A stretch of 64,000 nucleotides of DNA from contig OY776562.1 of the NCBI GenBank assembly GCA_963675785.1, positions 3,072,001 through 3,136,000 of the forward strand, read 5' to 3'. Position 1 is the first letter of the stretch. Each line of letters opens with the position of its first letter. Shown here piece after piece: positions 5,420-60,593 of the stretch. The notes under the pieces were generated by a model that saw only the letters and a list, made by a program, of their open reading frames with translations, was not told the origin of the DNA and searched no databases. The translations under genes were made by a program, and so were the position numbers. The stretch comes from Anaerolineae bacterium. Its GTDB lineage: Bacteria > Chloroflexota > Anaerolineae > UBA1429.

Positions 5420-5427
5420 GGTGAATC

Positions 5428-5592
5428 ATGGCCAAAAAGGCGAACCGTCTCGTGGTAACATTGGCCTGCACAGAGTGCAAGTCTAGGAACTATACGACTG
5501 AGAAGAACCGCAAGAACGATGCGGGTCGTATGGAATTGTTGAAATACTGCCCCAAGTGCCGTAAGCACACAGAGCACCGAGAGCAGCGTTAA
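5428..5592 (+). CDS. rpmG: 50S ribosomal protein L33 (Zn-binding, 54 aa; absent from the ORF track)
   Basis: Manual translation [54 protein letters not shown]; canonical position after tuf. Confidence 0.97.
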
Positions 5593-5622
5593 GTCGAGAT
5601 TCTGAGTATCGAGTCTCTTTGC

Positions 5623-5695
5623 AGGCGAGTAGCTCAATTGGCAGAGCAACGGTCTCCAAAACCGTAGGTTGCGGGTTCGATTCCTGCCTCGCCTG
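5623..5695 (+). tRNA. tRNA-Trp(CCA)
   Basis: AGGCGAG...CTCGCCT, anticodon arm ACGGT-CT CCA AA-ACCGT; between rpmG and secE. Confidence 0.97.
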
Positions 5696-9151: not shown

Positions 9152-9225
9152 TGGGCAGGATAGGACTCGAACCTACGGCCTCCACGATGTCAACGTGGCG
9201 CTCTAACCAGCTGGGCTACCTGCCC
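9152..9225 (-). tRNA. tRNA-Val(GAC)
   Basis: Minus strand GGGCAGGTAGCCCAGCTGGTTAGAGCG CCACG-TT GAC AT-CGTGG ...GGTTCGAGTCC TATCCTGCCCA; TTGCAA-16-TATAAT promoter at 9237-9264. Confidence 0.96.
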
Positions 9226-9339
9226 CCACTGAGGCTATTATACGGGATTCCGGCTTCCTTGCAAGTTATGCACTGACGGGTTGCTTTTCGCTGAGACGGT
9301 GATATGCTCTGCCCAGTATTGGGCTCAAGGAGATTGATA

Positions 9340-11429: not shown

Positions 11430-11729
11430 CTCTGCTTAGAGGGGTTGAACCGTTAAAATACAAGAGTGGAGACCCAATCTCCGATATGGAACAAGTTTGT
11501 ACAGCTGGCTCTGGAGGGCTTCTGGCAAAGGCGCAGACCCTCAAAGTGTCGCATAGCTGTTCATCGCATATTGCGGCATCCGATTTTCTTGTGAGCTGTA
11601 CAGATACTTTGTTCCAAAAAGCACATTTGGCATTCATTCAAAATGGAATAGTACTATTCGAACGGACCATTGCGGACTGTACCAGGGAAAGCATGGTCCG
11701 TTCTGCATTTTTCAAGGGGGAAGATGCTC

Positions 11730-13607: not shown

Positions 13608-13609
13608 CC

Positions 13610-14125
13610 GTGGCAGTAACCCAGTATCAGCATATTATTTGTGACCCCGACAAGTGTATCGGCTGCAGGTTGTGTGAGTATGCTTGTTCAGCTACCAAGA
13701 CCAACGCTTTTGATGCGCCCATGTCACGCATTCGGGTGGTGCGCATTGAGCCCATTACCATGATTGCCATAAGCTGCCGGCTCTGTGCGGATGCTCCCTG
13801 CATTATCGCCTGCCCGCGGAACGCCTTGACGCGTTCTTCTGAGAACGGCACTATCATTGTGGATGTTGACAAGTGCGATGGTTGCGGGTGGTGCATTGAG
13901 GCCTGCGATTTCGGCGCCATGCTCCTCGACCCGGCTACAAAGACGGCGGCTGTGTGCGATTTGTGTGCCGATCAACCCGATGGCCCGCAGTGCGTGGCCT
14001 TTTGCCCCAAAGAAGCGCTGGTATTAGGCACGCCGGAGACGCTTCGCCAGCAGGCTCGGCGTGATGTGGTAAAGAAACTGTTTGATGAACTATCGACTGA
14101 TGGCCCACAGCAGGAGAAGCGATAG
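13610..14125 (+). CDS. 4Fe-4S dicluster electron-transfer subunit of AOR
   Basis: CIGCRLCEYAC, CRLCADAPCIIACP, CDGCGWCIEAC, CDLC...CVAFCP; GTG start behind AGGAGG. Confidence 0.9.
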   Translation: MAVTQYQHIICDPDKCIGCRLCEYACSATKTNAFDAPMSRIRVVRIEPITMIAISCRLCADAPCIIACPRNALTRSSENGTIIVDVDKCDGCGWCIEACDFGAMLLDPATKTAAVCDLCADQPDGPQCVAFCPKEALVLGTPETLRQQARRDVVKKLFDELSTDGPQQEKR

Positions 14126-14128
14126 CGA

Positions 14129-16588: not shown

Positions 16589-17568
16589 TCAAATCGACCG
16601 CCTTTGATAAATCGTTTCCCAAAGAGGTGATGGCTGAGCCGGGCGGCGAGCAGTTGGTGGTTTGCTCGTCGTGCGGCACTTGCGCGGCGGCCTGTGTGGT
16701 GCGTCAGCAAAACCCTGAATACAACCCGCGGCGCATACTGCGTATGGCGGCGCTGGGGTTACGGGAGAAGGTACTTTCCTCCGAAGAGATTTGGCAATGC
16801 TCGGCTTGCGATGATTGTTATCCTCGCTGCCCCAAGGGTATCCATATCTCGGAAGTGATGGGTGCCATCCGGCAGATTGCCATTCGCGAGGGCTATACAC
16901 GGCCCGGCGCGACGGCCCAGGTGAACGTGAACCGCTGCGTGGCCTGTGGCATGTGTGCGGCGGCCTGCCCCTATGAAGCTATCAAACTGGAAGAAATCAT
17001 GATTCGCCGGTCACCCAAGCGAGTAGCCCAAGTAGACCCGAACCTTTGCGCGGGGTGTGGTATTTGCAACGCCGTGTGTCCCTCTGGCTCGATCTCGCTG
17101 GAGGGTTATACAGACCGTGAAGTACACGACGTGCTGTTGGAGGCCATGCCGCCCGATTGGTCGGGTCGGTTGCTGGTCATCATTTGCAATTGGAGCCTCC
17201 ACGCCGGTTCTGATATCACCTTTGCCGAAAACCCTCCCGAGGGTGTGCAGGTCATTCGTGTATCCTGTTCGGGACGAGTGACGCCCACCTTTGTGACTAC
17301 TGCTTTCGACCGTGGCGCTGAGGGCGTGTTAGTGGTGGGTTGCGACGAGGAAGAATGCCATTATCGTGAGGGCAGCCGCATCGCCAGCGGTCGGCTTCAG
17401 GTGTTGGGCTCACTGTTGGACATGATGGGCGTGGATGCCGCGCGCGTGCGCTTTACACGGCTTACCTCGCTGGACCGTGGCAAGTTGCCGACCATGGCGC
17501 AAGAGCAGCAAGCGCAACTGTCCGAATTAGGGCCGTTGGATTGGAAGGGTACCGGGGGGCGCTCATGA
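16585..17568 (+). CDS. HdrC-like + 2[4Fe-4S] ferredoxin + MvhD/FlxD-like fusion protein
   Basis: CSSCGTCAAAC and IWQCSACDDCYPRCP (HdrC), two CxxCxxCxxxCP motifs, then CNWS, VSCSGRV, GCDEEECHY (MvhD). Confidence 0.85.
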   Translation: MIKSTAFDKSFPKEVMAEPGGEQLVVCSSCGTCAAACVVRQQNPEYNPRRILRMAALGLREKVLSSEEIWQCSACDDCYPRCPKGIHISEVMGAIRQIAIREGYTRPGATAQVNVNRCVACGMCAAACPYEAIKLEEIMIRRSPKRVAQVDPNLCAGCGICNAVCPSGSISLEGYTDREVHDVLLEAMPPDWSGRLLVIICNWSLHAGSDITFAENPPEGVQVIRVSCSGRVTPTFVTTAFDRGAEGVLVVGCDEEECHYREGSRIASGRLQVLGSLLDMMGVDAARVRFTRLTSLDRGKLPTMAQEQQAQLSELGPLDWKGTGGRS

Positions 17569-37133: not shown

Positions 37134-37378
37134 AACAAAAAACGTCTCGCCCCAAACTTCAGGGACGAGACGCAATGCTCGCGGTACCACCCCGTTTGAT
37201 TGCTCTATGCTAAAGAGCAACCCACTCGGCCAGCCAGTAACGCGACTGAGACGTCCGGTCATACTCTGTTCTGCCCGGCTGCTCATCGGCCCATTCACCC
37301 GGTACTCGCGGCTCCGTTCGCAGCACAGGGAGCTCTCTTACGCTGTTTGCCAGGCTACTATTCCGAATCAACGCATTG
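37134..37378 (-). ncRNA. T-box riboswitch (Trp specifier)
   Basis: Minus strand: stem I with AGAGA and GAA-TGG specifier (37291-37293), T-box GGGTGGTACCGCG, terminator CGTCTCGTCCC...GGGGCGAGACG-TTTTT; promoter TTGACA-17-TATCAT at 37384-37412. Confidence 0.95.
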
Positions 37379-37447
37379 GCAACATGATACACCCCACAGT
37401 AAAGGGTGTCAAAGTGCTGTCACAGCTGAGAGTGTTAACGTTTCGCC

Positions 37448-49601: not shown

Positions 49602-52160
49602 ATGTTGCGCCCCCATCGCGTATATAATGTTGTCCCGTCTTTGCCGGCGTCGCTAGCTGCGCTGGAACCTCTTTCACGAAACCTATGGTGGTCATGGAAT
49701 CCCGACGCAATTGAGCTGTTCTTGCGACTGGATCGAGACCTCTGGGAACAATATAGACATAACCCCATTCGCTTGCTGGGAGCCGTCCGCCAGGAGAGAC
49801 TGGAGCATCTGGCTCAAGATGATGGCTTTATCGCTCATCTCGAGCGGGTTTGGGCTGCTTTTCAAGCGTATGTGGATAACAAAGATACATGGTATGCGAA
49901 CCATTGTCGCTCAGAAAATCTCTCGGTCGCCTATTTTTCCGCCGAGTTTGGCATTACGGAATGTGTTCCCAATTATTCGGGCGGACTTGGCATTCTTTCA
50001 GGAGACCACCTCAAATCGGCCAGTGACCTTGGCCTACCTCTGGTAGGCGTTGGCTTACTCTATCAACAAGGATACTTTCGCCAATATCTCAATGTAGATG
50101 GCTGGCAGCAAGAGTCCTATCCCATCAACGATTTCTATACCATGCCTATGTCACTTGTTCAGGGTGAGGACGGCGTACCTATTCATATCCAGGTCGATTA
50201 CCCCGGCAGAGCGGTGACAGCGCAGGTGTGGCTGGTCGAGGTTGGCCGAATCTCGCTTTACTTGTTGGATACCAACATCTCCGAGAACTCTGCCGATGAC
50301 CGCGGCATCACCAGTCAGCTCTATGGCGGCTATGATGATATGCGCATCCAGCAGGAGATTATGCTGGGTATTGGTGGAATACGCACGCTTTGGGCCATGG
50401 GGATGGAGCCGAATGTCTTTCATATGAACGAAGGTCATTCATCTTTCCTGGCACTAGAGCGAGTGCGGCGGCTGATCCAGGAAAAGGGGCTGGATTTCGA
50501 GGCAGCTCGACTTGCTACACGCGCCGGCAATGTGTTTACCACACACACACCTGTTCCGGCCGGTATTGACCTATTCCCTCCCAATATGATGGATCAGTAC
50601 TTTTCGTATTATTGGTCACAACTCGGTCTTGACCGCCAAGCGTTCCTGTATCTTGGACAGCGAGGCAACACGGGTGGCGACCGATTCTCTATGGCGGTGT
50701 TAGCGCTAGAGCTGGCCGACCACGTCAATGGCGTGAGCAAAATACACAGCCAGGTAGCGCGCGATATGTGGAAGGTGCTATGGCCGCAGACGCCCAAGCG
50801 CGAAGTGTCCATTAGCGCCATTACCAACGGCGTTCATGCTCCGAGTTGGGTTTCTCATGATATGGGCGATCTGTATCTGCGCTATCTTGGCCCGGGCTGG
50901 CGTGAACGTCCTTGGGACAAGTCGGTCTGGTTGAGGGTTGATTCCATTCCTGATGCCGAGCTGTGGCGAACCCATGAGCGGCGGCGTGAGCGGTTAGTTT
51001 CAACAGCGCGTGGGCGCTTGGTGGATCAACTGGTTAGCAAAGGGGCTTCTACGCAAGAAATTGGCGATGCGCGAGATGCTTTGGATCCCGAAGTGCTGAC
51101 CATTGGCTTTGCGCGGCGTTTTGCCACATACAAGCGGGCAACGTTGCTGTTCCGTGATCCAGAACGGCTTGCTCGCATTCTCAATGATCCTGAAAGACCC
51201 GTGCAGATTATCTTTGCGGGCAAGGCCCATCCGCATGATAACCCCGGCAAGGAACTCATCCGCCAGATTGTGCACTATTCGCGACAGCCCGAGTTTCAAG
51301 GACATGTGGTTTTTATTGAAAATTATGACATGAACCTGGCCCGCTATTTGTTGCAGGGTGTCGATATCTGGTTGAATACACCACGAAGTGGCCTGGAAGC
51401 TAGCGGCACCAGTGGTATGAAGGCTGCTATGAATGGTGCTTTGAATTGCAGCGCCTATGATGGCTGGTGGTGCGAGGGGTATTCTAACGGCGCAGGCTGG
51501 AGCATTGGGCGTGGTGAAAAGTATGATGATCCCAACTATGGTGATGAAGTTGAGGCGCGCGCGTTGTACGACATTCTAGAAAAGGATGTTGTGCCGCGAT
51601 TCTATAGCCGTGGGCACGACGGGCTGCCCCATAATTGGATTTCGATGATGAAGAGCTCGATTGGCTCGATTGCGCCCCAGTTCTCTTCCCATCGAATGGT
51701 GGAACAGTACTGCAGTGAGATGTACGAGCCAGCTTTTGAGAGGCATCACCAACTGGTCGAGAATGACTATCAAGTGGTCAAGGAATTGGCCTCTTGGGTG
51801 GGCAAGATCAAGGCACATTGGGGCGAACTGAGCGTGGTATCTGTCGAATCTTCCGCGGATGATAGCATGTCGGTGGGTGAAGACATTGAGATCAAGACAA
51901 CAATACGTCTTGGTGCTTTGGACCCCAAGGATATTCAGGTTCTTGTCTACCATGGCATTGTGGATGAAACTGGCACTTTGGGCGATTATGAGATCGCCGA
52001 TATGGATGGCGTGTGCGAGGTGGATGGAAGTCAGTGTGCCTATCGCGGCACTATATCCAATCACCATAGTGGAAGGCACGGTTATACTGTGTGCCTCAGG
52101 CCGCACCACCCCGAATATGGCGAGGTTTCATTGCCAGGCTACGTTTTGTGGTCTGATTAG
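49602..52160 (+). CDS. glgP: Alpha-glucan (glycogen) phosphorylase
   Basis: YSGGLGILSGDH, NEGH, ARRFATYKR, EASGTSGMKA. Confidence 0.96.
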   Translation: MLRPHRVYNVVPSLPASLAALEPLSRNLWWSWNPDAIELFLRLDRDLWEQYRHNPIRLLGAVRQERLEHLAQDDGFIAHLERVWAAFQAYVDNKDTWYANHCRSENLSVAYFSAEFGITECVPNYSGGLGILSGDHLKSASDLGLPLVGVGLLYQQGYFRQYLNVDGWQQESYPINDFYTMPMSLVQGEDGVPIHIQVDYPGRAVTAQVWLVEVGRISLYLLDTNISENSADDRGITSQLYGGYDDMRIQQEIMLGIGGIRTLWAMGMEPNVFHMNEGHSSFLALERVRRLIQEKGLDFEAARLATRAGNVFTTHTPVPAGIDLFPPNMMDQYFSYYWSQLGLDRQAFLYLGQRGNTGGDRFSMAVLALELADHVNGVSKIHSQVARDMWKVLWPQTPKREVSISAITNGVHAPSWVSHDMGDLYLRYLGPGWRERPWDKSVWLRVDSIPDAELWRTHERRRERLVSTARGRLVDQLVSKGASTQEIGDARDALDPEVLTIGFARRFATYKRATLLFRDPERLARILNDPERPVQIIFAGKAHPHDNPGKELIRQIVHYSRQPEFQGHVVFIENYDMNLARYLLQGVDIWLNTPRSGLEASGTSGMKAAMNGALNCSAYDGWWCEGYSNGAGWSIGRGEKYDDPNYGDEVEARALYDILEKDVVPRFYSRGHDGLPHNWISMMKSSIGSIAPQFSSHRMVEQYCSEMYEPAFERHHQLVENDYQVVKELASWVGKIKAHWGELSVVSVESSADDSMSVGEDIEIKTTIRLGALDPKDIQVLVYHGIVDETGTLGDYEIADMDGVCEVDGSQCAYRGTISNHHSGRHGYTVCLRPHHPEYGEVSLPGYVLWSD

Positions 52161-52172
52161 ATTTCCGAATAG

Positions 52173-52276
52173 CTCTCCGAGTTATGTGGCCTGAGGCCAA
52201 TCCTTTGGGCGGGTATGGCGCATAACCGATGGGTGCGGGTGGAAACGCCCGCGCCTCCCGTGTTTGGAAAGGGGAG
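52173..52276 (+). ncRNA. Moco-family riboswitch lacking P3 (Tuco-type)
   Basis: CTCTCCGAG-TTATGTG..CCTGAGG..TATGG-CGCATAA-CCGAT-GGGTGCGGGT GGAAAC GCCCGCGCC-TCCCGTGTTTGGAAAGGGGAG fits the Moco RNA consensus (CCU.AGG/UAUGG, GAAA loop, CCUCCCG.UUUGGAAAGG). Confidence 0.9.
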
Positions 52277-52294
52277 ACGTTTTCCTGCTCGTTC

Positions 52295-52333
52295 AGCGAG
52301 TAGGCGTCTTCTTGCGCCTGCTCGCTTTTTGTT
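52295..52333 (+). terminator. Riboswitch expression-platform terminator
   Basis: AGCGAGTAGGCG-TCTTCTTG-CGCCTGCTCGCT-TTTTGTT just before the RBS. Confidence 0.8.
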
Positions 52334-52351
52334 GTGTAGAGGACAGTAAAA

Positions 52352-53710
52352 TTGACGGAAGAAAAACGTTACTATTTTACCACGCGGGACTTGCTTATTA
52401 TGGCCGCCATGGCTGGCCTGGGTGGTGTGGCTAGTACGGCAATCAATGCGCTTGGTGATGTGATGCAGGCAGCCTTGGGTTTTGCTGGCACTACGCAGTG
52501 GGCCGCCGGTCTTCACACAATCTTTTTGCTTCTTGTTGTGGGGCTGGTTCGTAAAGGCGGTGCAGCTACATTGGCCGGATTGCTCAAGGGGGCCGTTGAG
52601 CTGCTCAGTGGCAACACCCACGGCATTATTATTCTATTGGTTGATTTAGCAGCTGGATTGATCATCGATTTGGTTTTTGCCCTGGTACAGCAGCGCCAAA
52701 GCCTATTGGTTTATATACTGGCTGGTGCATTTTCGGCGGCCAGTAACGTCATTGTTTTTCAATTGTTTGCTCTGGCGCCGGAAGATGTCCTTGCAGCTGT
52801 CTGGCTGGTGGCCCTGGTTGCAGCGGTTTCGGGCGCACTGCTAGGCGGTTGGGTTGCATGGTTGCTGCTGGGTGTGCTTCACAAGAATGGTCTGGTTCGA
52901 GAGGAGCCGGTGCGTACCATGCGCGGCTGGCGCTATGCTGTGTTTCTAGGCGTTTTTGCGCTGATTCTCATTGGCGGGAGCTGGACCATGGTGGAATCCT
53001 TGGCTGGGCCGCCGGTGATCGATATTCGTGTGGATGGCGAGGTGGTCTACCAATTTTCGCCCGATGACGACAACCTACCTCTCATTGTCGAAGATGTCGA
53101 ACTGAACGGCATCAAACGTAGTGTAAGCGGCTATAAATTGGCCGAGGTCATTGCTTTGGCTGTCAGTGGTACGGAATATGGCTCGGCGCTAATCTCTGCC
53201 ACGGATGGCTATTCCTTTTTCATTACTGATCGCGAGATTGAGGAAAACACAGAGCTGCTGTTGGCAGTGAGCGGCGAGGGTGAGGACACCAGTTACGAGA
53301 TCGTCGGTGCCGAGAACTCGAAAGCCTGGGTGCGTAACGTAGCTACCATTGATCTGGCCGAACAAACGCTCATCGAGGTGTCGGGCTTGATTGGTCTGCC
53401 CTCACCCTACAATCCCGCTGACTGGCAATACGAGATGGACAGTGCCTATCTGGATGTGGGGTATGGCGAGCAAAAATACCAGGGAACTATTGCCGCCGAT
53501 GTGCTGACAGCCTGGGAACCTTCAACAGGCGCAGAATCGGCCGTATTTTACAGTGCGGATGAACAGGTTGAACTAAGCCTGGAAGAGATTGCCACGGATC
53601 GCAGCTTGCGCATTTGGTCGGTCAATGCTGCTGGTGGAACCAGTTTTGCTCTGGCCACTGAAGGTGGCGAGATATTGTTGACCGACGTCGAACGTATCGA
53701 GGTCAAATGA
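52352..53710 (+). CDS. ECF transporter S component (YkoE-like) fused to two extracytoplasmic molybdopterin-oxidoreductase-like domains
   Basis: N-terminal ~185 aa hydrophobic (FTTRDLLIMA...VRKGGAATL), extra TM, then repeats G.kL..v...SATDGYS...WVRNV..I and YQG....vL...LTDVERIEV. Confidence 0.8.
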   Translation: MTEEKRYYFTTRDLLIMAAMAGLGGVASTAINALGDVMQAALGFAGTTQWAAGLHTIFLLLVVGLVRKGGAATLAGLLKGAVELLSGNTHGIIILLVDLAAGLIIDLVFALVQQRQSLLVYILAGAFSAASNVIVFQLFALAPEDVLAAVWLVALVAAVSGALLGGWVAWLLLGVLHKNGLVREEPVRTMRGWRYAVFLGVFALILIGGSWTMVESLAGPPVIDIRVDGEVVYQFSPDDDNLPLIVEDVELNGIKRSVSGYKLAEVIALAVSGTEYGSALISATDGYSFFITDREIEENTELLLAVSGEGEDTSYEIVGAENSKAWVRNVATIDLAEQTLIEVSGLIGLPSPYNPADWQYEMDSAYLDVGYGEQKYQGTIAADVLTAWEPSTGAESAVFYSADEQVELSLEEIATDRSLRIWSVNAAGGTSFALATEGGEILLTDVERIEVK

Positions 53711-53713
53711 ACT

Positions 53714-55162
53714 GTGTCTGAGCCGATGGTGCGCATCGACCAGCTCTCTTTTCGCTATGCAGCTGGTGAAACGCTGGCCCTCGATCATGTTTCGCTGGCG
53801 GTCGACAAGGGCGAGTTTGTGGTGTTGACCGGACCAAGCGGCTGCGGCAAGTCGACGTTGGCACTAGCCATGGGCGGTTACCTGGCGCATCAATTCAAAG
53901 GAGAGTTCGAGGGCACTGTTGAGGTGGCCGACGTCGATACGCTCCGAGAGCCGCTTTATCAGGTGGCGGACGTGGTCGGTTTGGTGCAGCAGAACCCGGA
54001 GGATCAGTTTTGCACCTTGCGGGTGGACGATGAGGTGGCCTTTGGTCCAGAGAATCGTTGTGTAGAGCCACTGATGATTCGCCAACTTGAGCAGAATTCG
54101 TTGATGAGGGCTCAAGCTCAGCATCTTGAGGGTCGTCTGCTGGATTCGCTCTCTGGCGGTGAAAAGCAACGGGTGGCTCTGGCGTCTATGCTGGCTGGCA
54201 CGCCGCAATTGTTGATTTTGGACGAGCCCACATCCAGCCTCGACCCTCAGGCTACACAGGATGTGTTGGCAGTATTGGATAATCTTCGTCGCGAGCGTGG
54301 CCTGACTCTGATCGTCATCGAACACAAATTGGATGCCCTGATGCGCTTTAATCCGCGTATTGTGCGTATGGCCCAGGGGCACATCGAACAAGATCATTCT
54401 GTTTTTCAGCCAACTGTACCCGTAGTTCATGCACCCTCAATGGCAGGTAAGGTTGCTGTGGCACTAGAGGGCGTCTCCGTCACTCTAGAAGATCATCACG
54501 CACTCGATAACGTAACTGTAGATTTTCACTCTGGCCAGTTGACTGCTCTGATGGGAGCCAATGGTGCTGGCAAGACCACACTCTTGCGGGTCATCCGCGG
54601 TTTACAGCCTGTGCGGAGAGGTTGTGTTTGTGTGTTAGGTCAGGATGTTGCCAAGGATACTGTGTCAGCTCTAGCCGGGCGCGTGGGGTTTATGTTTCAG
54701 AATCCCGATCACCAGTTGCTAAGCGATACGGTGCAAGGTGACATGGCTTTTGGTCTATCTGCCCAGCAGGTCACCCAAGATGCACTTTATCATCAGCAAT
54801 TGCTTGAATTGGCTGGTCTTTGGGAGCTGCGCAATAGACACCCCTTTTCTCTGAGCTATGGGCAAAAGAGGCGTCTGAATCTGTCTTCACTGTTGGCGCA
54901 AAAACCGCAGATCATTCTGGTTGACGAACCGCTCATTGGGCAGGACCCTAACAACGCCCAGTATGTCATGGGGGTGCTCAGGGCCGCTGCGGATGAAGGC
55001 GTTTGTGTGATCGCGGCACTTCATGCCCCGGGGATGGTTCAGCGCTTTGCAGACAGGGTTGTGTTTTTGGCTCAGGGGCGTATCGATATCGATGCGGCAC
55101 CGGATGCTGCCTTTGCCGCATTGTCTTCCTCCGGGCGCAAAGCTTTTGCAGGTATGTTATGA
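53714..55162 (+). CDS. ECF transporter tandem ATPase (A-A' fusion)
   Basis: GPSGCGKST / LSGGEKQR / DEPT and GANGAGKTT / LSYGQKRR / DEP; QNP Q-loops. Confidence 0.92.
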   Translation: MSEPMVRIDQLSFRYAAGETLALDHVSLAVDKGEFVVLTGPSGCGKSTLALAMGGYLAHQFKGEFEGTVEVADVDTLREPLYQVADVVGLVQQNPEDQFCTLRVDDEVAFGPENRCVEPLMIRQLEQNSLMRAQAQHLEGRLLDSLSGGEKQRVALASMLAGTPQLLILDEPTSSLDPQATQDVLAVLDNLRRERGLTLIVIEHKLDALMRFNPRIVRMAQGHIEQDHSVFQPTVPVVHAPSMAGKVAVALEGVSVTLEDHHALDNVTVDFHSGQLTALMGANGAGKTTLLRVIRGLQPVRRGCVCVLGQDVAKDTVSALAGRVGFMFQNPDHQLLSDTVQGDMAFGLSAQQVTQDALYHQQLLELAGLWELRNRHPFSLSYGQKRRLNLSSLLAQKPQIILVDEPLIGQDPNNAQYVMGVLRAAADEGVCVIAALHAPGMVQRFADRVVFLAQGRIDIDAAPDAAFAALSSSGRKAFAGML

Positions 55163-55911
55163 CAGCCAGCATGAGCCGTCTCGGAGTGGTTGGGCGCATT
55201 CATCCCTTACCCAAATTTGCCTGGCTCCTGGCTGTTTCGGTGGCCGTGTTTGTGGTGGGCCAACCGGTGGTTATTTGGGCCATCGTCCTAGGGCTCGTAC
55301 TGGTGGGTTATCCTTATCTGGTCGGTAGGTCGCGTGCGTTCCGCCTGACTATATTCTCTACGTTGGGACTTTTTCTGCTGCAGGCGCTATTTTACCACCA
55401 GGGACGGGTGCTGTTCGATCTGTGGCCGGGAGAGGCGCAATGGTCGGTGACAGTAGACGGTCTGCTACGCGGACTGCGTGTATCGGGTCGCTTTCTCGCC
55501 ATTATACTGGCCAGCCAGGTGTTTGTAGGGTCGACAGACTCTAGCGAACTGGCCTACAGCCTGATGCAGGCTGGCGTTCCCTATCGATTTGGCTTTGCGC
55601 TTGTCTCAGCCCTGCGTATGACGCCTATGTTTCGCAGTGAGGGTCGTACAGTGTACGAAGCTCAACTTTGCCGAGGCGTGGCGCTGGATCGCGGTGGCTT
55701 GCGTGGCCTTTTGGTTAGGCTGCAGCGCTTTTTGTTGCCGCTGGTGGTATCTGCTCTCAGAAGGGTCGATAGCCTGTCCATCTCGATGGAAGGCCGACAC
55801 TTTGGGCGTTATCGAACCCGAACCTTTGCACAACCTTTGCATCACCACCGCAGAGACTACGCGGTCTGGGGGTTATTGATTTTTTTCATCGCCATCATCG
55901 TCGTCCTGTAG
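55159..55911 (+). CDS. ecfT: ECF transporter transmembrane component T
   Basis: HPLPK, ALRM.P, EAQLCRG, SMEGRHF coupling-helix motifs; ATGA overlap. Confidence 0.9.
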   Translation: MTASMSRLGVVGRIHPLPKFAWLLAVSVAVFVVGQPVVIWAIVLGLVLVGYPYLVGRSRAFRLTIFSTLGLFLLQALFYHQGRVLFDLWPGEAQWSVTVDGLLRGLRVSGRFLAIILASQVFVGSTDSSELAYSLMQAGVPYRFGFALVSALRMTPMFRSEGRTVYEAQLCRGVALDRGGLRGLLVRLQRFLLPLVVSALRRVDSLSISMEGRHFGRYRTRTFAQPLHHHRRDYAVWGLLIFFIAIIVVL

Positions 55912-55921
55912 GTGGGCCAAT

Positions 55922-57844
55922 ATGTGGAACGAGTTTCTGTACAGTATCGCGACCTATCCCTACCTCTATGCACTGTTCACTGGCGTTATGCTCCTGTGGA
56001 TCACTGTAGGGCTACACGCCCTACGTCGTGTGCGGCAGGCGCCTGACGAGCGACCACGCCTCACCTTCAAAAAATTTGGCGCTGCATTCCAAGAAGCGTT
56101 GGTTCAACGGCGCATCTGGCGGAGGCCTCTGGCCGGTGCGATGCACCTCTGCCTGTTTGCCGCAGGGGTGCTCATTCTGGTGGCCTATATTATGACTCAC
56201 CATGTTGCCCCTCGTGGCGAGGCTTGGCAGGCCAGCCGCACTGCACATTTCATTGCTGATTTGGGCGTAATGCTAGGTTTTGTTGGACATATGCTGGCGG
56301 GCTGGCGACGTTTTATTCGCAAAGAGACCTCTCGCGCCTTTAGCGATGTGCTGTTGTGGGGCTTGGGCTTTGTGTTCATCATCGCCTATGGCCTGGCTAA
56401 TGCGTTACAGGTGGCCATCACCGATCCAAATTGGCAGCGTGCGGCCTTTTTGAGCCGCCCGATAGCTGGGCTTTTCTCAGGCATGGCGACTCTTACACTG
56501 CGCTCACTTTACGGGTTAGTTTGGGCTCTTGTCCACGGCTCTTTGTTCGTAGGCGTTTTGCTGGTACCCCTGACCAAGTGGCGCCACGTTTTGGCAATCG
56601 TAGTCAACCTTGCGCATGCGGACGATCTTCCGCCAGCAGTAGCTGTCTCCGAGGATCTGAATGGTGATGGGCCCTTTGGTCTGGGGCGAACGGATCAGCT
56701 CAGCAAGAAGCAACTCTACGAAACCTGGGCTTGCGTTCGTTGTGGGCGTTGTAGCACGGTCTGTCCGGCAACGATGACTGGCAAGATGCTTGATCCGCTC
56801 AAACTGATAGAGGCCGAGCTGGAAGCCCCAAGGATGGCCAGCTTACCCGACTTTATCGATCAGGAGGCACTTTGGCAGTGCAGCATGTGCCTGGCCTGCG
56901 CGGATGTATGCCCTGCGGATATTGCCCCCTGGCGCCATTTACTGGATATGCGTCGCGAGCGCGTGCTGGAGGCGGCCGAGTTTCCCCAAGAGCTTCAAGG
57001 CGTTTTTCGCGGCATAGAGCGGCGCGGCAACCCGTGGGGCACGGCTACCAACAAGAGCGAAATCGCTCGTGAAGCAGGTGTGCGCCTATTATCCAAAGGC
57101 GATTCTTGCGATGTGTTGCTGTGGATGGGCTGTATGGTGGCGGTGGACCCACTGGCACAGCAGGCCTGGCGGGCTATGGCGCAGTTGTTGGCAGCGGCCG
57201 ACGTCGATGTGGCTTGCCTGGGCGATGCCGAGCCCTGCTGCGGCGATGCAGCACGCCGTCTAGGCAATGAGTACATCTGGCAGCAACAGGTGGAGACCGT
57301 GAGTGATGCCATGCATGATATTCATGTGGGACGGGTTGTCTCAGTTTGCCCACATTGCGCTAACACTTTGGGCAACGAGTATCCGCAGGGACTTTGGCAG
57401 GGCGTGTCTCACGCTCTTGAAGAATTGAGCTGTCTGGCCCAGGAGGGGCGTATCGTCCCCGAGGCACATCAGGTCAAGCCCTGTCGTGTGGTTTACCATG
57501 ATCCTTGCTATTTGGCGCGCGGCCTTGACGTCATTGATTCTGTGCGCCGACTGCTTGTTGCCACGCCAGGTTGCGAACTAGTCGAGCCTGCGCACAAGGG
57601 CAAGGATGTGTGGTGTTGCGGTGCGGGCGGCGGCCAGATGTGGCTTCAAGAGGATGACGGTGCGGCTTTGGGCCAGTCACTCTTTGATGAACTGGCCAAT
57701 ACCAAGGCCGAACTAATACTCTCTGCATGTCCTTATTGTGATACGACACTGCAATCTGAGTTTGGCAATACGAACGATGTAAGTGATGTGGTGATTTTTA
57801 TCGCCAATCGATGGCGTGCTAGTGACAGGAGTGATCAAGGGTGA
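55922..57844 (+). CDS. Membrane Fe-S oxidoreductase (NarI-like TM + 2[4Fe-4S] + two CCG domains; HdrD/HdrF/FadF-like)
   Basis: TM His residues (AMHL, LVHG, KWRH), CVRCGRCSTVCP, CSMCLACADVCP, CCGD, CPHC, YHDPCYL, CCGAGGG, ACPYC. Confidence 0.88.
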   Translation: MWNEFLYSIATYPYLYALFTGVMLLWITVGLHALRRVRQAPDERPRLTFKKFGAAFQEALVQRRIWRRPLAGAMHLCLFAAGVLILVAYIMTHHVAPRGEAWQASRTAHFIADLGVMLGFVGHMLAGWRRFIRKETSRAFSDVLLWGLGFVFIIAYGLANALQVAITDPNWQRAAFLSRPIAGLFSGMATLTLRSLYGLVWALVHGSLFVGVLLVPLTKWRHVLAIVVNLAHADDLPPAVAVSEDLNGDGPFGLGRTDQLSKKQLYETWACVRCGRCSTVCPATMTGKMLDPLKLIEAELEAPRMASLPDFIDQEALWQCSMCLACADVCPADIAPWRHLLDMRRERVLEAAEFPQELQGVFRGIERRGNPWGTATNKSEIAREAGVRLLSKGDSCDVLLWMGCMVAVDPLAQQAWRAMAQLLAAADVDVACLGDAEPCCGDAARRLGNEYIWQQQVETVSDAMHDIHVGRVVSVCPHCANTLGNEYPQGLWQGVSHALEELSCLAQEGRIVPEAHQVKPCRVVYHDPCYLARGLDVIDSVRRLLVATPGCELVEPAHKGKDVWCCGAGGGQMWLQEDDGAALGQSLFDELANTKAELILSACPYCDTTLQSEFGNTNDVSDVVIFIANRWRASDRSDQG

Positions 57845-58689
57845 GCAAGCGATGGACGTGGCTCCTCGTCGGGGCCATTGGTGTTGTAATCGGTATCGGT
57901 TTGGCCAGCTGGAAGACCTTTCCCATCGAGGATATGATTGCACGAACTACTTGCGCTGAATGTCATGATGTGCACGGGGCTCTCGAAATTGCCCAAGTTC
58001 CAGCTCAGAGCCAGGTCTGGATCTTGGGCGATGTGCCGGAATCCACTTATTTCTTTGTAAATGATCTTTTTCCTCTTGCAGACGAGACGGAGGGTACGAG
58101 TATTTCACTCATCGACTTGTTGGCCGATTATGGGGTGACGGATTGGGAAAAGGTCTCAATTGAATCCCTCGATGGCGGACTGGTAACGCTGGAGCGCCAG
58201 TATGTCACGGAGAATTCCCTTCTTGTGCCCTATGTCGATGGCATTCGCTTCAAGGATGTCAATCTGCACGAATCCACCTGGCTCAAGGGTGTACGCTTTA
58301 TCACTGTACAGGGCAGCGAGACGCCCCTGCTTCTCGGAGATACGCAGACTTCGTTAGGGCGTTTGCTGATGGGTGATCGCACAGCCGTTATAGCCGAAGC
58401 CAGTGATGCGCTATATTCCAGTCCTGTGGACGGACAGATTTACCAGGGTAACTATGCGCACATTTACACTGGCGCGTCGCTTGTTTCACTGTTGACGGCT
58501 TACCCAGAGGCAACTACTTTTGCCTGCACCAGCCAGGATAGCGAGACGGTATCATACACACGTGAGGAACTACAAGAGGCTGTCATTGCGCCGGTATCTG
58601 GTTTGCCTTCGCTGGTGCTGCCGCAGTATGGTCAGGGGAGCTGGGTCATTGGGATTGAGAGCATTGTGCCAGAGGATGGGGAGAGTTGA
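57841..58689 (+). CDS. Membrane-anchored protein with single CxxCH and two molybdopterin-oxidoreductase-like domains
   Basis: N-terminal TM, CAECH, SLIDLL..ESLDG...WLKGVRFI and YTGASL...SQD...WVIGIESI. Confidence 0.65.
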   Translation: MSKRWTWLLVGAIGVVIGIGLASWKTFPIEDMIARTTCAECHDVHGALEIAQVPAQSQVWILGDVPESTYFFVNDLFPLADETEGTSISLIDLLADYGVTDWEKVSIESLDGGLVTLERQYVTENSLLVPYVDGIRFKDVNLHESTWLKGVRFITVQGSETPLLLGDTQTSLGRLLMGDRTAVIAEASDALYSSPVDGQIYQGNYAHIYTGASLVSLLTAYPEATTFACTSQDSETVSYTREELQEAVIAPVSGLPSLVLPQYGQGSWVIGIESIVPEDGES

Positions 58690-58690
58690 T

Positions 58691-59824
58691 ATGTTGCGAG
58701 TGAAGAGATTGGGGGCATTGCCAAGTGCGCTACTGGCGATAGCCCTAGTTGCGGGTTGTTCGCCCAGGTGGGAGATTGGACTGACCATTGATGGGGATGT
58801 ACGTTCACCGCTTACTGGCCAGCAATGGAGCACGGCACTAGAAAGTTATCCGGATGAATGCGTTGAAGATAGTGTTCCCCTGGAACGGCTTTTATCCATG
58901 GCTTCTGTTCCGGCGGTAGAGTCAGTAAGCGTAGACGACCAATCATGGTATTGGGCCGATGTGTATGACGATGCCTGGGTAGAAAAGGGCGGTACGCTGG
59001 TCATCGCTGGTGAAAGCATAGAGACAAAAGATATTAGCATCGTTTTGCCGACACTTGATGCTTCGGTAACAGTTGAGCTGATAGATATTGCTCCCACAAT
59101 TGCTGGCGCGTTGGGAGTTCGTTCGCCGGAGGATACTGAGGGCCGTGCTGTAGCAGCTTTTGACGCCGAACATGTCGTCCATATTTTTTTGGATGGCTTT
59201 GGCTATGAGAACTATCAATCGGTTGTAGGTACGCGCACTACATCCTTTCTAGACAGCCTGGGCGCTCCGCGTATTGCCCGAACAGTTTACCCTAGTGCGA
59301 CCAAGGCCTCGACGGCCGCGATGATTACCGGCGCTTCGCCCACGGTGAATGGTGTTTCTTCTGGTGAACTGCGCACCACCGAAAGCGAGACGATCTTTCA
59401 GGTTCTGACTGAGGCAGGGCTTTCTAGTGTGGCCGTGGAAGGTTCATCTTTGGCTTTCAATCTGGTCTCGACAGAGATCATTGTCTCGGGTGACCGCGAC
59501 GATGACGGCTATTCGGACGACAATACTTATGAGAATGCCCTCGAAGTGATGAACGAGGGATTGCCCGATTTCCTCTGGGTGCATTTTCATGGAATCGACG
59601 ATGCTGGGCACACGTACGGTCCGTTAGCTGACGAGACGCTGGCTATGATGACACGCGTGGATGGCTATGTTTCTGATATCGTACAGCGATTACCCGAGGG
59701 AACTCTGGTGATCATTTGCGCCGATCATGGAATGCACGATGTGGTAGAAGATGGCCGTCTGGGGAACCACGGTTCCCTCTTGTCTCAGGATATGTATATT
59801 CCCTTCTGGACGATTCAACTCTGA
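58691..59824 (+). CDS. Alkaline-phosphatase-superfamily (NPP-like) lipoprotein
   Basis: Lipobox VAGC, FLDGFG, YPSATKAS (Thr nucleophile), DDAGH, ADHG, GNHG. Confidence 0.82.
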   Translation: MLRVKRLGALPSALLAIALVAGCSPRWEIGLTIDGDVRSPLTGQQWSTALESYPDECVEDSVPLERLLSMASVPAVESVSVDDQSWYWADVYDDAWVEKGGTLVIAGESIETKDISIVLPTLDASVTVELIDIAPTIAGALGVRSPEDTEGRAVAAFDAEHVVHIFLDGFGYENYQSVVGTRTTSFLDSLGAPRIARTVYPSATKASTAAMITGASPTVNGVSSGELRTTESETIFQVLTEAGLSSVAVEGSSLAFNLVSTEIIVSGDRDDDGYSDDNTYENALEVMNEGLPDFLWVHFHGIDDAGHTYGPLADETLAMMTRVDGYVSDIVQRLPEGTLVIICADHGMHDVVEDGRLGNHGSLLSQDMYIPFWTIQL

Positions 59825-59832
59825 GTATAATG

Positions 59833-59876
59833 AAAGGGCGGGGAAGAGATTGGCCTCTTCCCCGCCCTTTTTTTTA
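59833..59876. terminator. Bidirectional terminator between the two riboswitch-led units
   Basis: AAAGGGCGGGGAAGAG-ATTGGC-CTCTTCCCCGCCCTTT-TTTTT. Confidence 0.88.
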
Positions 59877-60353
59877 TTCGACGACTTCGATACTCGTGAG
59901 TTTGTATAGCCAGCCATCGGCTGGTAGGTTGGGTATTACAACGCGAATAGGGGCGGTCTTGGTGTCGTCAGTGGTATAGACGCCATCCCTCTTCAAAGCG
60001 ATGATAGCCTGATCAAGATCCGAGATATTGACCTCCTTGGCATAGCCATCAGAGGCGGTGAGCAAGAGGCTGACGGCATTTTCACTCATGCCGGCTTCTT
60101 CCAAAATAGCCATCAGGTCGGGGCCTTCCCATGTGTTGGTCTCATTTTCGCCTTGCGACTTGCGCATGAGGACATTTTCGAGCACTACCTGATCCCGCTC
60201 AGTGAGATCCTGGTATGAGAGCGTAAGAGGCGTTTCTACGGCTCCAGTGATTTCTAGGTTCCAATCAACTTTGGGGGCACCATTACCGCAGCCTGTGGCA
60301 ACCAGCATGACGATGACAATAGCAACTACCATGGTAAGCGAGCGTTTTCTCAT
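59874..60353 (-). CDS. Lipoprotein with a single molybdopterin-oxidoreductase-like domain
   Basis: Lipobox ATGC, WNLEITGAV, WEGPDL, TASDGY, PIRVVIP, WLYKLTSIEV; ATG 60353 behind AAAGGA. Confidence 0.82.
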   Translation of the reverse strand: MRKRSLTMVVAIVIVMLVATGCGNGAPKVDWNLEITGAVETPLTLSYQDLTERDQVVLENVLMRKSQGENETNTWEGPDLMAILEEAGMSENAVSLLLTASDGYAKEVNISDLDQAIIALKRDGVYTTDDTKTAPIRVVIPNLPADGWLYKLTSIEVVE

Positions 60354-60447
60354 TTTGATCCTTTCGATATAGGAAGAATGCTCGCTCATGTCCGCCGTCG
60401 TGTTTGTACACAACAACACACAGCACGATTTTCGTGCTGCGATTGCG

Positions 60448-60575
60448 GTTCTCCTTTCCAAACACGGGCGGCATGAGCGTTTCCACTCAGACCGTTCGCC
60501 GGGCAATTGTGGTTGCCTGGCTGCGATCGCAGACCCTAGAGTTTTCTGTTCCGTAGGCCGTGCGATTCGGAGAAC
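60448..60575 (-). ncRNA. Moco-family riboswitch with P3 (Moco-type)
   Basis: Minus strand GTTCTCCGAA-TCGCA..CCTACGG..TAGG..TGCGA-[P3]-TGAGT GGAAAC GCTCA-TGCCGCCCGTGTTTGGAAAGGAGAAC; P1 GTTCTCC/GGAGAAC. Confidence 0.85.
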
Positions 60576-60593
60576 AGTCTATTCACTAGGGCT

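Follow-up and report, generated by a model that had tools for sequence, protein, structure and literature searches.

In the window (the whole 64,000-nucleotide stretch of DNA analyzed), positions 52173 to 60575 hold a tight six-gene operon, g1 to g6, with -4 to +10 nucleotides between neighbors, and a convergent lipoprotein gene, g7, the whole flanked by two Moco/Wco riboswitches. Aptamer 1 (52163 to 52290, + strand) heads the operon and aptamer 2 (60436 to 60584, - strand) heads g7. In an Infernal covariance-model search (cmscan against Rfam), they matched RF01055 with 73.0 bits (E = 1e-15) and 60.0 bits (E = 6.7e-12), respectively, both above the gathering score of 36. Aptamer 1 is P3-less ("Tuco-type"): it covers the full model (1 to 135) except for the P3 hairpin, which the printed alignment shows as a deletion. 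No insert was present at the P3 position of aptamer 2 in the riboswitch alignment or in 13 other copies aligned with aptamer 1. A passage of PMC2408646 correlates P3-less Moco RNAs with tungsten-cofactor metabolism. The expression platform directly behind aptamer 1 is an intrinsic-terminator-like hairpin (52295 to 52326, + strand), a 13-bp stem with 8 GC pairs followed by TTTTTGTTG; a competing 9-bp hairpin (52284 to 52304) overlaps it, and the RNA fold of 52160 to 52350 has a z of -4.9. Another terminator-like hairpin (60419 to 60441, - strand; 10-bp stem, then TGTTGTTGTG) lies at the 3' end of aptamer 2, and the operon and g7 converge on a shared hairpin terminator (59832 to 59871; 17-bp stem, 10 GC pairs, followed on the + strand by a T run). 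Judging from its sequence, the locus is predicted to be controlled by these P3-less Moco-family riboswitches. The two RNAs, the operon, the convergent lipoprotein gene, and the common terminator were thus all found where a preliminary description of this DNA had placed them. The genome contains only three Moco-family RNAs, the third of which precedes two more g7-like lipoproteins.

The first three genes encode a complete ECF transporter. g1 (52352 to 53710, + strand) specifies a YkoE-like S component with six transmembrane helices (PF09819, E = 4e-16, residues 12 to 129), extended by a tail of ∼240 amino acids that adds a seventh transmembrane helix (192 to 216) and two outside PruR/SUOX-like domains (∼218 to 338 and 339 to 452). 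In an AF2 model (pLDDT 84.3), the S domain matched the ECF S component 5edl (Foldseek E = 1.5e-6, TMt 0.73) and the tail, which has no conserved Cys, matched YedY, SorA, and PruR 7kom (TMt 0.68). g2 (53714 to 55162, + strand) encodes a fused double ECF ATPase, EcfA-EcfA' (two ABC_tran domains, E = 1e-52; 330.8 bits with the ECF ATPase model TIGR04520, cutoff 315), and overlaps by 4 nucleotides the start of g3 (55159 to 55911, + strand), which encodes EcfT, the transmembrane coupling component of the CbiQ family (PF02361, E = 1.8e-22). The closest known transporter is YkoEDC (ThiUVW) of Bacillus subtilis, an HMP/thiamine ECF transporter with the S component structure 5EDL. Each of the two systems has its own operon, which specifies a PF09819 S component, EcfT, and a fused double ATPase and is placed under a cofactor riboswitch. 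The locus differs in having a Moco/Wco rather than a TPP riboswitch, a seventh helix and two outside domains in its S component, three conserved accessory surface proteins, and a presumed metal-dithiolene pterin substrate. The fusion of an S component to PruR/SUOX-like domains occurs in hundreds of proteins, and JGI labels many g1 homologues "thiamin/hydroxymethylpyrimidine transport" and, for the tail, [quoted passage not shown].

g7 (59874 to 60353, - strand) encodes a small lipoprotein with one cysteine-less PruR/SUOX-like domain (PF00174 Oxidored_molyb, E = 2.3e-14; AF2 pLDDT 88.5). Foldseek matched its model to SorA 2blf (E = 1.9e-9), YedY, PruR 7kom (E = 4.6e-8, TMt 0.72), and the neopterin-containing 7rkb. 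SUOX-family proteins bind the cofactor as plain Mo-MPT, and their Moco domains (SorA 2blf, YedY/MsrP 1xdq and 1xdy, SoxC 2xts, sulfite oxidase 1sox) share with g7 the fold and the PF00174 match (E = 1e-9 to 1e-5, TMq ∼0.7). However, g7 has ∼130 amino acids against 170 to 250 in those domains and lacks the dimerization and catalytic add-ons as well as the Mo-ligating Cys, whose position in SorA is Leu/Met in the g7 family alignment. On the grounds of its small size and of the missing Cys and catalytic add-ons, g7 is not an SUOX-family enzyme.

PruR from Agrobacterium tumefaciens and other Proteobacteria (7kou, 7kos, 7kom, 7kp2, 7rkb; Foldseek TMt 0.67 to 0.72 with g7) is likewise small, secreted, possibly lipidated, and made up almost wholly of the SUOX-type fold without the Mo-ligating Cys. 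Both proteins conserve a Tyr and a C-terminal Trp, which in PruR sandwich the pterin ring, as described in part of PMC11194511; the same part describes PruR as signaling to DcpA, a c-di-GMP enzyme, as binding non-Moco pterins, and as carrying a PW motif on a truncated hairpin. In contrast, the g7 family has a longer conserved hairpin (LMxKSxGED) and D-G-Y in place of N-x-Y, and g7 belongs to a Chloroflexota ECF operon under Moco riboswitches. D102-G103-Y104, R137, and W148 are invariant in the family. Comparison with the g7 family by hhalign gave 98.2% and 95.7% for domains A and B of the g1 tail and 94.1% and 97.1% for the two domains of g5; g7 and these four domains are mutually homologous. 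All five keep the D-G-Y and Trp positions without the Mo-ligating Cys. The models of g7 and g1 identify the outside domains as cysteine-less SUOX/PruR-type folds and predicted pterin binders, consistent with the surface "capture" domains proposed earlier.

g5 (57841 to 58689, + strand) encodes a membrane-anchored outside protein in which Pfam and NCBIfam searches found no match; homologue alignment and hhalign revealed a CxxCH..HG (heme c) motif and the two PruR/SUOX-like domains. All 25 aligned homologues share C38, C41, H42, H45, and G46, and most of them have a second CxxCH; a Cytochrom_C_asm gene is present in the genome. g6 (58691 to 59824, + strand; true start, the ATG at 58691) encodes a lipoprotein with an N-terminal domain and an NPP domain of the alkaline-phosphatase superfamily (PF01663 Phosphodiest, E = 2.8e-18). 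Conservation among 40 homologues reaches 95% or more at its lipobox C23 and at D168, T204, D303, D304, H307, D345, H346, N359, and H360. g4 (55922 to 57844, + strand) encodes a membrane-anchored HdrD/GlpC-like iron-sulfur protein built from an N-terminal transmembrane region, two [4Fe-4S] clusters, and two CCG domains (PF02754 twice, E = 3e-26; Fer4_8, E = 4e-9). Membrane CCG modules of the DsrMK/HdrED type have the same build and a periplasmic cytochrome c partner (DsrMKJOP), and the g4 gene overlaps the heme c gene g5. Unlike those modules, g4 lacks a sulfur-metabolism context, its best NCBIfam matches (TfrB, LdhH, and GlpC) are all far under cutoff, and only the nearest relatives carry it.

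Of 78 assessable related loci, 71 have a P3-less Moco RNA ahead of the S gene (median distance 82 nucleotides, at most 527), an outcome in favor of the preliminary description, which had asked whether such S components consistently follow Moco RNAs. At eight loci scanned against all of Rfam, RF01055 was the only riboswitch match, with neither a TPP nor a B12 riboswitch. The conserved cassette consists of the S component, double ATPase, EcfT, heme protein, NPP protein, and lipoprotein. Among 43 full-length related loci, g5 is kept in 41, g6 in 36, and a g7-like gene in 40. The preliminary description needs amendment on two points. It counted the CCG oxidoreductase as part of the system; g4 is present here but in only 5 of the 43 loci, and it is an accessory of a subclade outside the core cassette. 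The convergent lipoprotein gene does stand under a second Moco RNA here, but elsewhere it usually belongs to that same operon, at its end (on the operon strand in 34 of 41). The S family and g7-like domains also occur in other architectures, adjacent but unfused (L109) or as multidomain repeats (L110).

The window's genome is a single contig of 3,217,757 bp (completeness, 94.84%). Profile searches of it gave no match for MoaC, MoaE, Mob_synth_C (the C-domain of MoaA), or MoeA_N; MogA/MoaB is also absent, the sole MoCF_biosynth domain belonging to CinA. ModA/WtpA and TupA were not found, PF13531 and PF12849 yielding only PstS and one weak orphan. A closed genome of the same family (G075) has a MoaB-MoeA-MoeA-MoaA-MoaC-MOSC and TupA-like ABC cluster, whose ORFs gave nothing in the window's genome by tblastn beyond generic radical-SAM and ABC matches. 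Three intact genes for AOR, a tungstopterin enzyme family, are retained (three AFOR_N matches), and the one at 11670 to 13607 (+ strand; AFOR_N, E = 2e-68; AFOR_C, E = 2e-128) is a likely client of imported cofactor. Also retained are a DmsA/DmsB-like pair, a Cys-bearing small SUOX lipoprotein, and a MobA-like guanylyltransferase, whose substrate in the pathway is finished Mo-MPT. Hence, this closed genome lacks both the pathway and the oxyanion transporters while keeping cofactor enzymes, in line with the earlier proposal that the locus serves Moco/Wco-using enzymes in an organism without its own synthesis.

We then considered 301 genomes of the class, 20 with the S gene and 281 without. MoaC is missing in 10 of the 20 carriers and in 23 of the 281 noncarriers (odds ratio, 11; P = 6e-6, kinship ignored), and the MoaC-less carriers are spread over eight families; the S component is thus commoner in moaC-less genomes, as had been anticipated. 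AORs are present in all 20 carriers. In seven of them, MoaC, MoaE, and MoeA_N are all missing, and each of these has 3 to 14 AOR matches. MoaE absence is a weak marker, since MoaE was undetectable in 34 of 101 class genomes.

Together, these results suggest, with a probability of about 0.65, a role for the locus in salvage: it would specify a dedicated ECF importer of group I (YkoEDC-like) that takes up a molybdopterin-type cofactor from outside the cell. On this reading, the cargo would be Mo/W-molybdopterin, or at least molybdopterin, for use by the AORs and the remaining Mo/W enzymes of a bacterium unable to make it. Because the genome also lacks MoeA, MogA, and TupABC, the cargo is most likely already metal loaded in this organism. 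The cysteine-less PruR/SUOX-like domains of g7, g5, and the S component would hold the pterin part of the cofactor at the cell surface, and the NPP lipoprotein g6 may cleave dinucleotide forms (MGD/MCD) to the MPT form; we infer both this trimming and the identity of the transported species as the pterin cofactor. The heme c of g5, joined in the subclade by the HdrD-like g4, may hold the ligand, which is sensitive to oxygen and redox conditions, in its reduced state. The fused g1 domains would pass the ligand to the S component, with EcfAA'T driving import. Imported cofactor may then bind the riboswitches and shut the system down, an OFF logic expected by analogy.

Cofactor-salvage ECF systems under their own riboswitch are well known (ThiT/TPP, RibU/FMN, CbrT/B12, QueT/preQ1, FolT/THF). 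Like the locus as we read it, they pair a finished-cofactor importer with repression by a sensing RNA, often in auxotrophs; the locus adds surface capture, heme c, and a phosphodiesterase. Algal and plant Moco carrier/binding proteins and dietary Moco uptake in C. elegans illustrate that nonenzyme proteins hold Moco and that it passes between organisms. However, these carriers are eukaryotic and of unrelated fold, and we know of no membrane Moco transporter in those systems. The "coenzyme uptake" categories in the relevant part of the survey PMC3766115 have no Moco member, and the literature searched contained no prior description of ready-made Moco/Wco import by such a bacterial route. If the salvage reading is true, a bacterium without Moco/Wco synthesis genes obtains the finished cofactor from its surroundings.

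Several observations speak against salvage. Because free Moco is very labile, the existence of an extracellular pool cannot be taken for granted, and assembly of W-bis-MPT for AOR without MoeA is a difficulty. The system is not confined to auxotrophs, as 10 of the 20 carriers retain MoaC. Conversely, the S homologue is absent from 10 AOR-bearing MoaC-less genomes, three of them 96 to 99% complete with one AOR each. Finally, the riboswitch was undetectable in 6 of the 78 loci and 3.45 kb away in one, and none of six metagenome loci whose S homologues are unfused or distant had RF01055.

The cargo could instead be a simple pterin of the neopterin/monapterin type, with only an indirect riboswitch link, which we regard as improbable though the strongest of the alternatives. 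PruR proteins, the closest small structural relatives, bind non-Moco pterins and, like the g7 family, lack the Mo-ligating Cys; their truncated cleft is reported in part of PMC11194511 to be too short for Moco. However, the g7 family keeps the LMxKSxGED hairpin where PruR has its shortened PW loop, and it would remain unexplained why the system goes together with MoaC loss and the presence of AORs. Moreover, simple pterins are made from GTP by a separate pathway and are not molybdopterin precursors (same part of PMC11194511), so they could neither satisfy a Moco-family riboswitch nor serve three AORs without moa/moe genes.

Somewhat less probable is an extracytoplasmic redox enzyme system composed of g4, g5, and g7 (compare SorAB and MsrPQ), which the ECF genes would merely accompany. 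The SUOX fold with heme c does resemble a sulfite:cytochrome c oxidoreductase, g4 a DsrMK/HdrED-like module, and genes for Moco-using enzymes also lie behind Moco RNAs (in a passage of PMC2408646, and here at L117). Yet the Mo-ligating Cys is missing from all five domains, g4 is missing from 38 of the 43 full loci, hundreds of proteins carry these domains as part of the S component itself, and the Sec/lipoprotein signals would demand the cofactor outside a cell whose genome cannot make it.

Uptake of the metal only, as tungstate/molybdate or a chelate in the manner of ModABC, TupABC, or WtpABC, appears slightly more doubtful still. Oxyanion transporters are commonly found behind Moco RNAs (a passage of PMC2408646), as are ModA/ModB-type genes in two exception genomes (at L114 and L115), and the window's genome, with no recognizable ModA, WtpA, or TupA, would need a metal route if the pterin were made inside. 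Against this, metal alone would be useless to this genome and six other carriers, because they lack MoaC, MoaE, and MoeA_N, and the outside domains have a pterin-binding rather than an oxyanion-binding PBP fold. Nor do we know of an ECF S component that transports oxyanions.

Synthesis genes hidden on unassembled DNA, such as a plasmid, or too divergent to detect, beside an ordinary thiamine/HMP-type importer placed by chance behind Moco-like RNAs, would fit the completeness below 100%, the YkoE family of the S domain, and the JGI thiamin label, but this is very unlikely given five independent domain families absent from a single-contig genome, a relative's whole cluster without tblastn match, recurrence in six other carriers of other families, no TPP riboswitch at any of the eight loci scanned, and the molybdopterin-dependent YedYZ name that the same label adds for the tail. 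Three genomes that have AORs but neither MoaC nor the ECF system (G121, G185, and G182) also point toward salvage of a molybdopterin-type cofactor: each has a BtuF/FecCD-type importer behind its Moco riboswitch instead.

A preliminary description of this DNA had placed two Moco-family RNAs around a tight six-gene operon (g1 to g6, 52352-59824, + strand) and a convergent lipoprotein gene (g7, 59874-60353, - strand). We scanned the whole window with Rfam covariance models and found exactly two copies of the Moco/Wco riboswitch family RF01055, both of which exceeded the gathering score of 36 and covered model positions 1-135. Aptamer 1 heads the operon (52163-52290, + strand, 73.0 bits) and aptamer 2 heads g7 (60436-60584, - strand, 60.0 bits). 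The P3 hairpin is deleted in the cmscan alignment of aptamer 1, and none of 14 aligned RF01055 copies (0/14) has an insert at the P3 position. A passage in Regulski et al. 2008 (PMC2408646) describes a subclass of Moco RNAs that lack P3 and correlate with tungsten-cofactor metabolism; by the absence of P3, both aptamers are members of this subclass. A 13-bp terminator-like hairpin lies immediately 3' of aptamer 1 and is overlapped by a competing hairpin, a 10-bp hairpin follows aptamer 2, and a 17-bp hairpin separates the convergent g6 and g7. The riboswitch would act as an OFF switch at the g1-g6 locus. The same scan of the window also returned a SAM riboswitch (95.5 bits), a T-box leader (115.2 bits) and five tRNA genes, which together occupy 3531-3641, 37158-37380, 3823-5695 and 9152-9225.

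Profile matches agreed with the gene types initially listed, and all parts of the locus were recovered at their initial positions, the sole correction being the start of g6 (ATG at 58691). Neighbouring genes in the operon are spaced by -4 to +10 nt. The first, g1, encodes an ECF S component (PF09819, E 4e-16) with a tail of ~240 aa, g2 a double ECF ATPase with two ABC_tran domains (TIGR04520, 330.8 bits against a cut-off of 315), and g3 an EcfT protein of the CbiQ family (PF02361, E 1.8e-22). Next come g4, whose product is a membrane protein combining two CCG domains with a 4Fe-4S dicluster, g5, which has a CxxCH motif and no family match, and g6, whose lipoprotein product contains a type I phosphodiesterase/NPP domain (PF01663, E 2.8e-18). 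On the opposite strand, g7 encodes a 159-aa lipoprotein with an Oxidored_molyb domain (PF00174, E 2.3e-14). The first three genes combine a known S family with EcfT and two EcfA domains in one operon, which are the gene criteria of a group I ECF transporter. By gene content, g1-g3 is thus an ECF transporter of group I (dedicated module), with predicted transport activity.

In the AF2 model of g1 (pLDDT 84.3), six helices match the ECF S component 5edl (TMt 0.73). After this S domain come a seventh transmembrane helix (192-216) and two beta domains that match YedY, SorA and PruR. Since S components have both termini in the cytoplasm, the seventh helix would place the tail outside the cell. The g7 model (25 homologues, pLDDT 88.5) gave Foldseek matches to the sulfite dehydrogenase SorA (E 1.9e-9), to YedY (E 1e-8) and also to SoxC, and it matched PruR over nearly its full length (7kom, E 4.6e-8, TMt 0.72; also 7kos, 7kp2 and 7rkb, the last being a PruR structure solved with neopterin). 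Profile comparison showed that the g7 family is homologous to both g1 tail domains (98.2% and 95.7%) and to the two domains of g5 (94.1% and 97.1%); the N-domain of g6 reached 39% probability against the g7 profile.

The g7 protein therefore shares the Moco-domain fold of the SUOX-family molybdoenzymes. These enzymes have a conserved Mo-ligating Cys, whereas the domains of g7, of the g1 tail and of g5 do not. The corresponding Cys of SorA aligns with Leu/Met in g7, no Cys besides that of the lipobox (an invariant Cys22 in the lipoprotein signal) is conserved in 25 sequences of the g7 family, none is conserved in 22 sequences of the g1 tail, and the only conserved cysteines of g5 are those of CxxCH. 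To our knowledge, SUOX is the one fold that holds plain Mo-MPT, and its PruR version holds free pterins. PruR resembles g7 in being a small secreted SUOX-like fold devoid of the Mo cysteine. A published account of PruR (PMC11194511) notes, in an excerpt, that this cysteine is missing and that the pterin ring is stacked between a Tyr and a Trp. The invariants of the g7 family are D102-G103-Y104, an Arg and the C-terminal W148, and in a comparison by sequence order they follow that of N102/Y104/W160 of PruR. The two proteins differ in that PruR has a PW motif in place of the Cys, whereas the g7 hairpin reads LMxKSxGED, and in that the PruR operon contains a DcpA-type sensor, whereas the neighbours of g7 are ECF transporter genes.

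Two further proteins of the locus have conserved motifs. In g5, CxxCH..HG is invariant in 25/25 sequences and follows an N-terminal hydrophobic helix, and most homologues have a second CxxCH. With its CxxCH on the outer side and one Cytochrom_C_asm (cytochrome c assembly) gene for maturation in the window's own genome (G000), g5 is a predicted c-type cytochrome. Across 40 homologues of g6, conservation is 95% or higher at D168, T204, D303, D304, H307, D345, H346, N359 and H360, and the lipobox is retained; we take the conserved Asp, Thr and His to be the NPP metal site and nucleophile.

Relatives of the fused S protein number at least 596 in the protein collection; among 120 relatives listed, a majority combine PF09819 with PF00174, and those that are named come from Chloroflexi/Anaerolineae. 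A species-level genome collection yielded 131 stretches encoding an S relative, and we kept 80 loci, all from Chloroflexota MAGs mostly labelled Anaerolineae. Eight of them were scanned with all Rfam families: RF01055 lay upstream on the S-gene strand in 8/8, within ~300 nt in seven and 3.45 kb away in one, and the only other match was a single tRNA. A covariance model built from 14 RF01055 copies was then run on all 80 loci and gave 84 matches. Two loci begin at a contig end; in 71 of the 78 with room upstream, a match lay at most 527 nt from the S gene (median 82 nt), one locus had a match 3.45 kb away and six had none. Twelve further RNA matches lay downstream, mostly preceding convergent g7-like genes. 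The expectation that these S components consistently follow Moco RNAs was thus borne out in Chloroflexota.

To define the cassette, we counted genes in the 43 loci that extend at least 7.5 kb past the S start. EcfA and EcfT pair with the S gene throughout (g2 in 43/43, g3 in 43/43), g5 is present in 41/43, a g7-like gene in 40/43 (on the operon strand in 34/41), g6 in 36/43 and g4 in 5/43. These counts define a core of S-AA'-T-haem protein-NPP-lipoprotein, to which only the nearest relatives add the g4 CCG protein. The haem, NPP and lipoprotein components originally assigned to the system are hence conserved, whereas its membrane CCG oxidoreductase is not. Beyond Chloroflexota, RF01055 was found at 0/6 metagenome loci with S homologues. 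Unfused S homologues of 242-245 aa exist, one of them labelled Phycisphaerae, and the short non-Chloroflexota matches are mostly contig-end fragments. Only two of the six metagenome loci combine an S gene and g7-like domains, differently arranged and without a Moco RNA: at one, a g7-like gene immediately precedes an unfused S gene (L109:302-1647), and the other encodes one ORF of five g7-like domains, a second of two, and an S component to which a single such domain is fused (L110:4031-9077).

We then analyzed the cofactor biosynthesis genes of G000, a single contig of 3.22 Mb with a completeness of 94.84. MoaC, MoaE, the MoaA C-domain and MoeA_N gave no match in G000 in searches that were positive in 11/14 control genomes, and the only MoCF_biosynth domain is that of CinA. 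G000 has no recognisable tungstate or molybdate transporter: binding proteins of the ModA/WtpA and TupA types were not found, the matches being tandem PstS proteins of a pst-phoU operon and one weak orphan. As an independent comparison, G075, a closed genome from the same family, contains a compact cluster with MoaB/MogA, two MoeA, MoaA, MoaC and MOSC followed by a TupA-like ABC system (L103:5836-13458). By tblastn, the ORFs of this region found in G000 only the general similarity of radical-SAM proteins and of ABC ATPases; G000 is syntenic over the left flank (2105051-2110100) and is missing the whole block.

G000 nevertheless retains enzymes that depend on a W- or Mo-pterin. It has three intact aldehyde:ferredoxin oxidoreductase (AOR) genes, one of them inside the window, and a DmsA/DmsB-like pair with a cytoplasmic DmsA-like protein of 702 aa (L094:2965-5591, - strand). 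A 213-aa SUOX-family lipoprotein (PF00174, E 1.8e-31), encoded downstream of a recJ-like gene without a riboswitch (L104:5751-6392, or G000:C1:1011750-1012391), has kept its Cys (..LVCPG..) and is probably a genuine SUOX enzyme of small size acting outside the cytoplasm; it would be another client of the cofactor. An orphan MobA-like guanylyltransferase of 213 aa adjoins mreB (L096:1372-2013, - strand), and its best NCBIfam matches are all MobA models, though below their cut-offs. Because MobA acts on finished Mo-MPT, a salvage route would leave behind just such a MobA, with the pathway upstream of it gone. Just three Moco RNAs occur in G000, and the third (73.9 bits) lies in front of two small tandem lipoproteins (L008:2664-3889, or G000:C1:851663-852888) that match the g7-type HMM (E 5e-27 and 2e-30) and have no Pfam match at E 1e-3, so every Moco RNA of G000 would control either the ECF system or Cys-less pterin-fold surface proteins. 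Genes for a GFO/IDH/MocA oxidoreductase and sugar-phosphate-isomerase-like proteins lie 3' of these lipoproteins.

To evaluate the link with pathway loss more broadly, we used a class sample of 301 evenly drawn genomes, of which 20 have an S gene (carriers) and 268 have MoaC. MoaC is missing in 10/20 carriers versus 23/281 non-carriers (odds ratio 11, Fisher p = 6e-6, with kin that are not independent), as anticipated for S components of an importer; 13 of the MoaC-negative genomes were inferred from gaps in the handle numbering. The ten carriers without MoaC span eight families, and in the window's own family both carriers are without MoaC and the nine other genomes all have it. Against a simple rule, 10 carriers retain MoaC. 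Two debatable carriers were kept: G069, which has the full pathway and only an S fragment with two stop codons (TAG), and G263, in which S, MoaC and MoeA are all in pieces, possibly from assembly indels. Without these two, 10/18 lack MoaC. AORs are present in 20/20 carriers, with 3-20 matches each. MoeA_N is missing in 8/20 and MoaE in 17/20, and seven carriers lack MoaC, MoaE and MoeA_N together while having 3, 3, 8, 10, 6, 14 and 7 AOR matches. We dropped MoaE as a marker of pathway loss, since it is not Pfam-detectable in 34/101 class genomes, most of which have MoaC; the gap reflects either a divergent MPT synthase or many genomes whose pathway ends at cPMP.

Ten AOR-bearing genomes without MoaC have no S homologue even at E 1e-3, and Moco RNAs were found in 7/10 of them. 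In G121, G185 and G182 (loci L111, L112 and L113), the RNA precedes a Peripla_BP_2 lipoprotein, followed by a FecCD permease in L113, where the locus extends far enough. Transporters of the BtuF/FecCD class carry siderophores, haem and B12, and this ABC importer may be a second, unrelated candidate importer of the same cofactor. In two others, ModA/ModB-type or permease genes lie behind the RNA; these oxyanion-transporter cases are probably fragmented genomes (81-91% complete) with unassembled moa genes. In the last two, the RNA precedes a TAT molybdoenzyme and an ATPase fragment with a g7-like domain, respectively.

ECF S components import micronutrients, and a cofactor riboswitch in front of an importer reports its cargo or the product thereof. 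As G000 has no synthesis of cPMP, MPT or metal-MPT, yet has W/Mo-pterin enzymes and RNAs predicted to sense the cofactor, the simplest account is that the cofactor enters from outside at the level of MPT or later. Most likely it would enter already metal-loaded, via the only transporter under the sensing RNA. Every in silico test that we ran backed the cofactor-importer interpretation of the preliminary description, and we give a probability of roughly 65% to the locus being an importer of a molybdopterin-level cofactor. We hold the detailed mechanism less confidently: the NPP protein g6 would cut MGD/MCD to MPT, and the haem c of g5, with g4, would hold the ligand reduced.

Other explanations accommodate parts of these data. 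Proteins of the g4, g5 and g7 types could form a redox enzyme outside the cell, in keeping with the SUOX fold and the CxxCH motif; the cargo could be a simple pterin, such as PruR binds; biosynthesis could be hidden in G000; or the metal only could be transported, in a genome devoid of a recognisable oxyanion transporter. None of the four accounts jointly for the lost pathway, the retained AORs and the missing catalytic Cys. A role in export was rejected, since G000 has nothing to export.

The locus encodes a transporter of the known ECF kind; new are its candidate cargo class, its fused architecture and its accessory proteins. In the textbook view, every user of a Mo/W cofactor must make its own because the free cofactor is so unstable. 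The literature searched, with incomplete coverage, yielded no description of a bacterial Moco/molybdopterin importer or of an ECF system under a Moco riboswitch. A Moco uptake category is absent from the consulted portion of a 2013 riboswitch-regulon survey (PMC3766115), and an excerpt of a 2026 review states that how pterins cross membranes is unknown (PMC13259868).

Import of the cofactor, if true, would establish Moco/Wco auxotrophy and cross-feeding in bacteria, explain genomes with many AORs but no pathway, and extend the pterin-binding fold of PruR from signalling to nutrient capture. It would also give metabolic modellers a marker of cofactor dependency, help the cultivation of Anaerolineae, yield natural modules for cofactor binding and a transporter with which Moco might be handled or delivered, and could inform dietary Moco uptake in animals. 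More speculatively, and with the odds rather against this full picture, anaerobic Chloroflexota might use finished W/Mo-pterin as a vitamin. Cys-less SUOX/PruR domains on a lipoprotein, a haem-c protein and the transporter, together with an ecto-pyrophosphatase converting MGD/MCD to MPT, would strip, trim and protect metal-loaded MPT shed by neighbouring cells for import by the ECF system; in other lineages, a non-homologous BtuF/FecCD importer behind the same type of riboswitch would take its place. Lineages with as many as 14 AOR genes could thereby have lost the whole moa/moe pathway and tungstate uptake repeatedly, and Moco/Wco would be a traded public good in anoxic communities.

The surroundings of the AOR gene in the window have features of their own. 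A 681-aa ORF (9304-11349) immediately upstream of it has no Pfam family at E 1e-5. After the AOR gene, the region 13559-17568 encodes a Fer4_11 protein, a short FAD-oxidoreductase-like ORF and two FlpD (MvhD-like)/ferredoxin-domain proteins, an arrangement that suggests a multi-subunit, possibly electron-bifurcating AOR complex.
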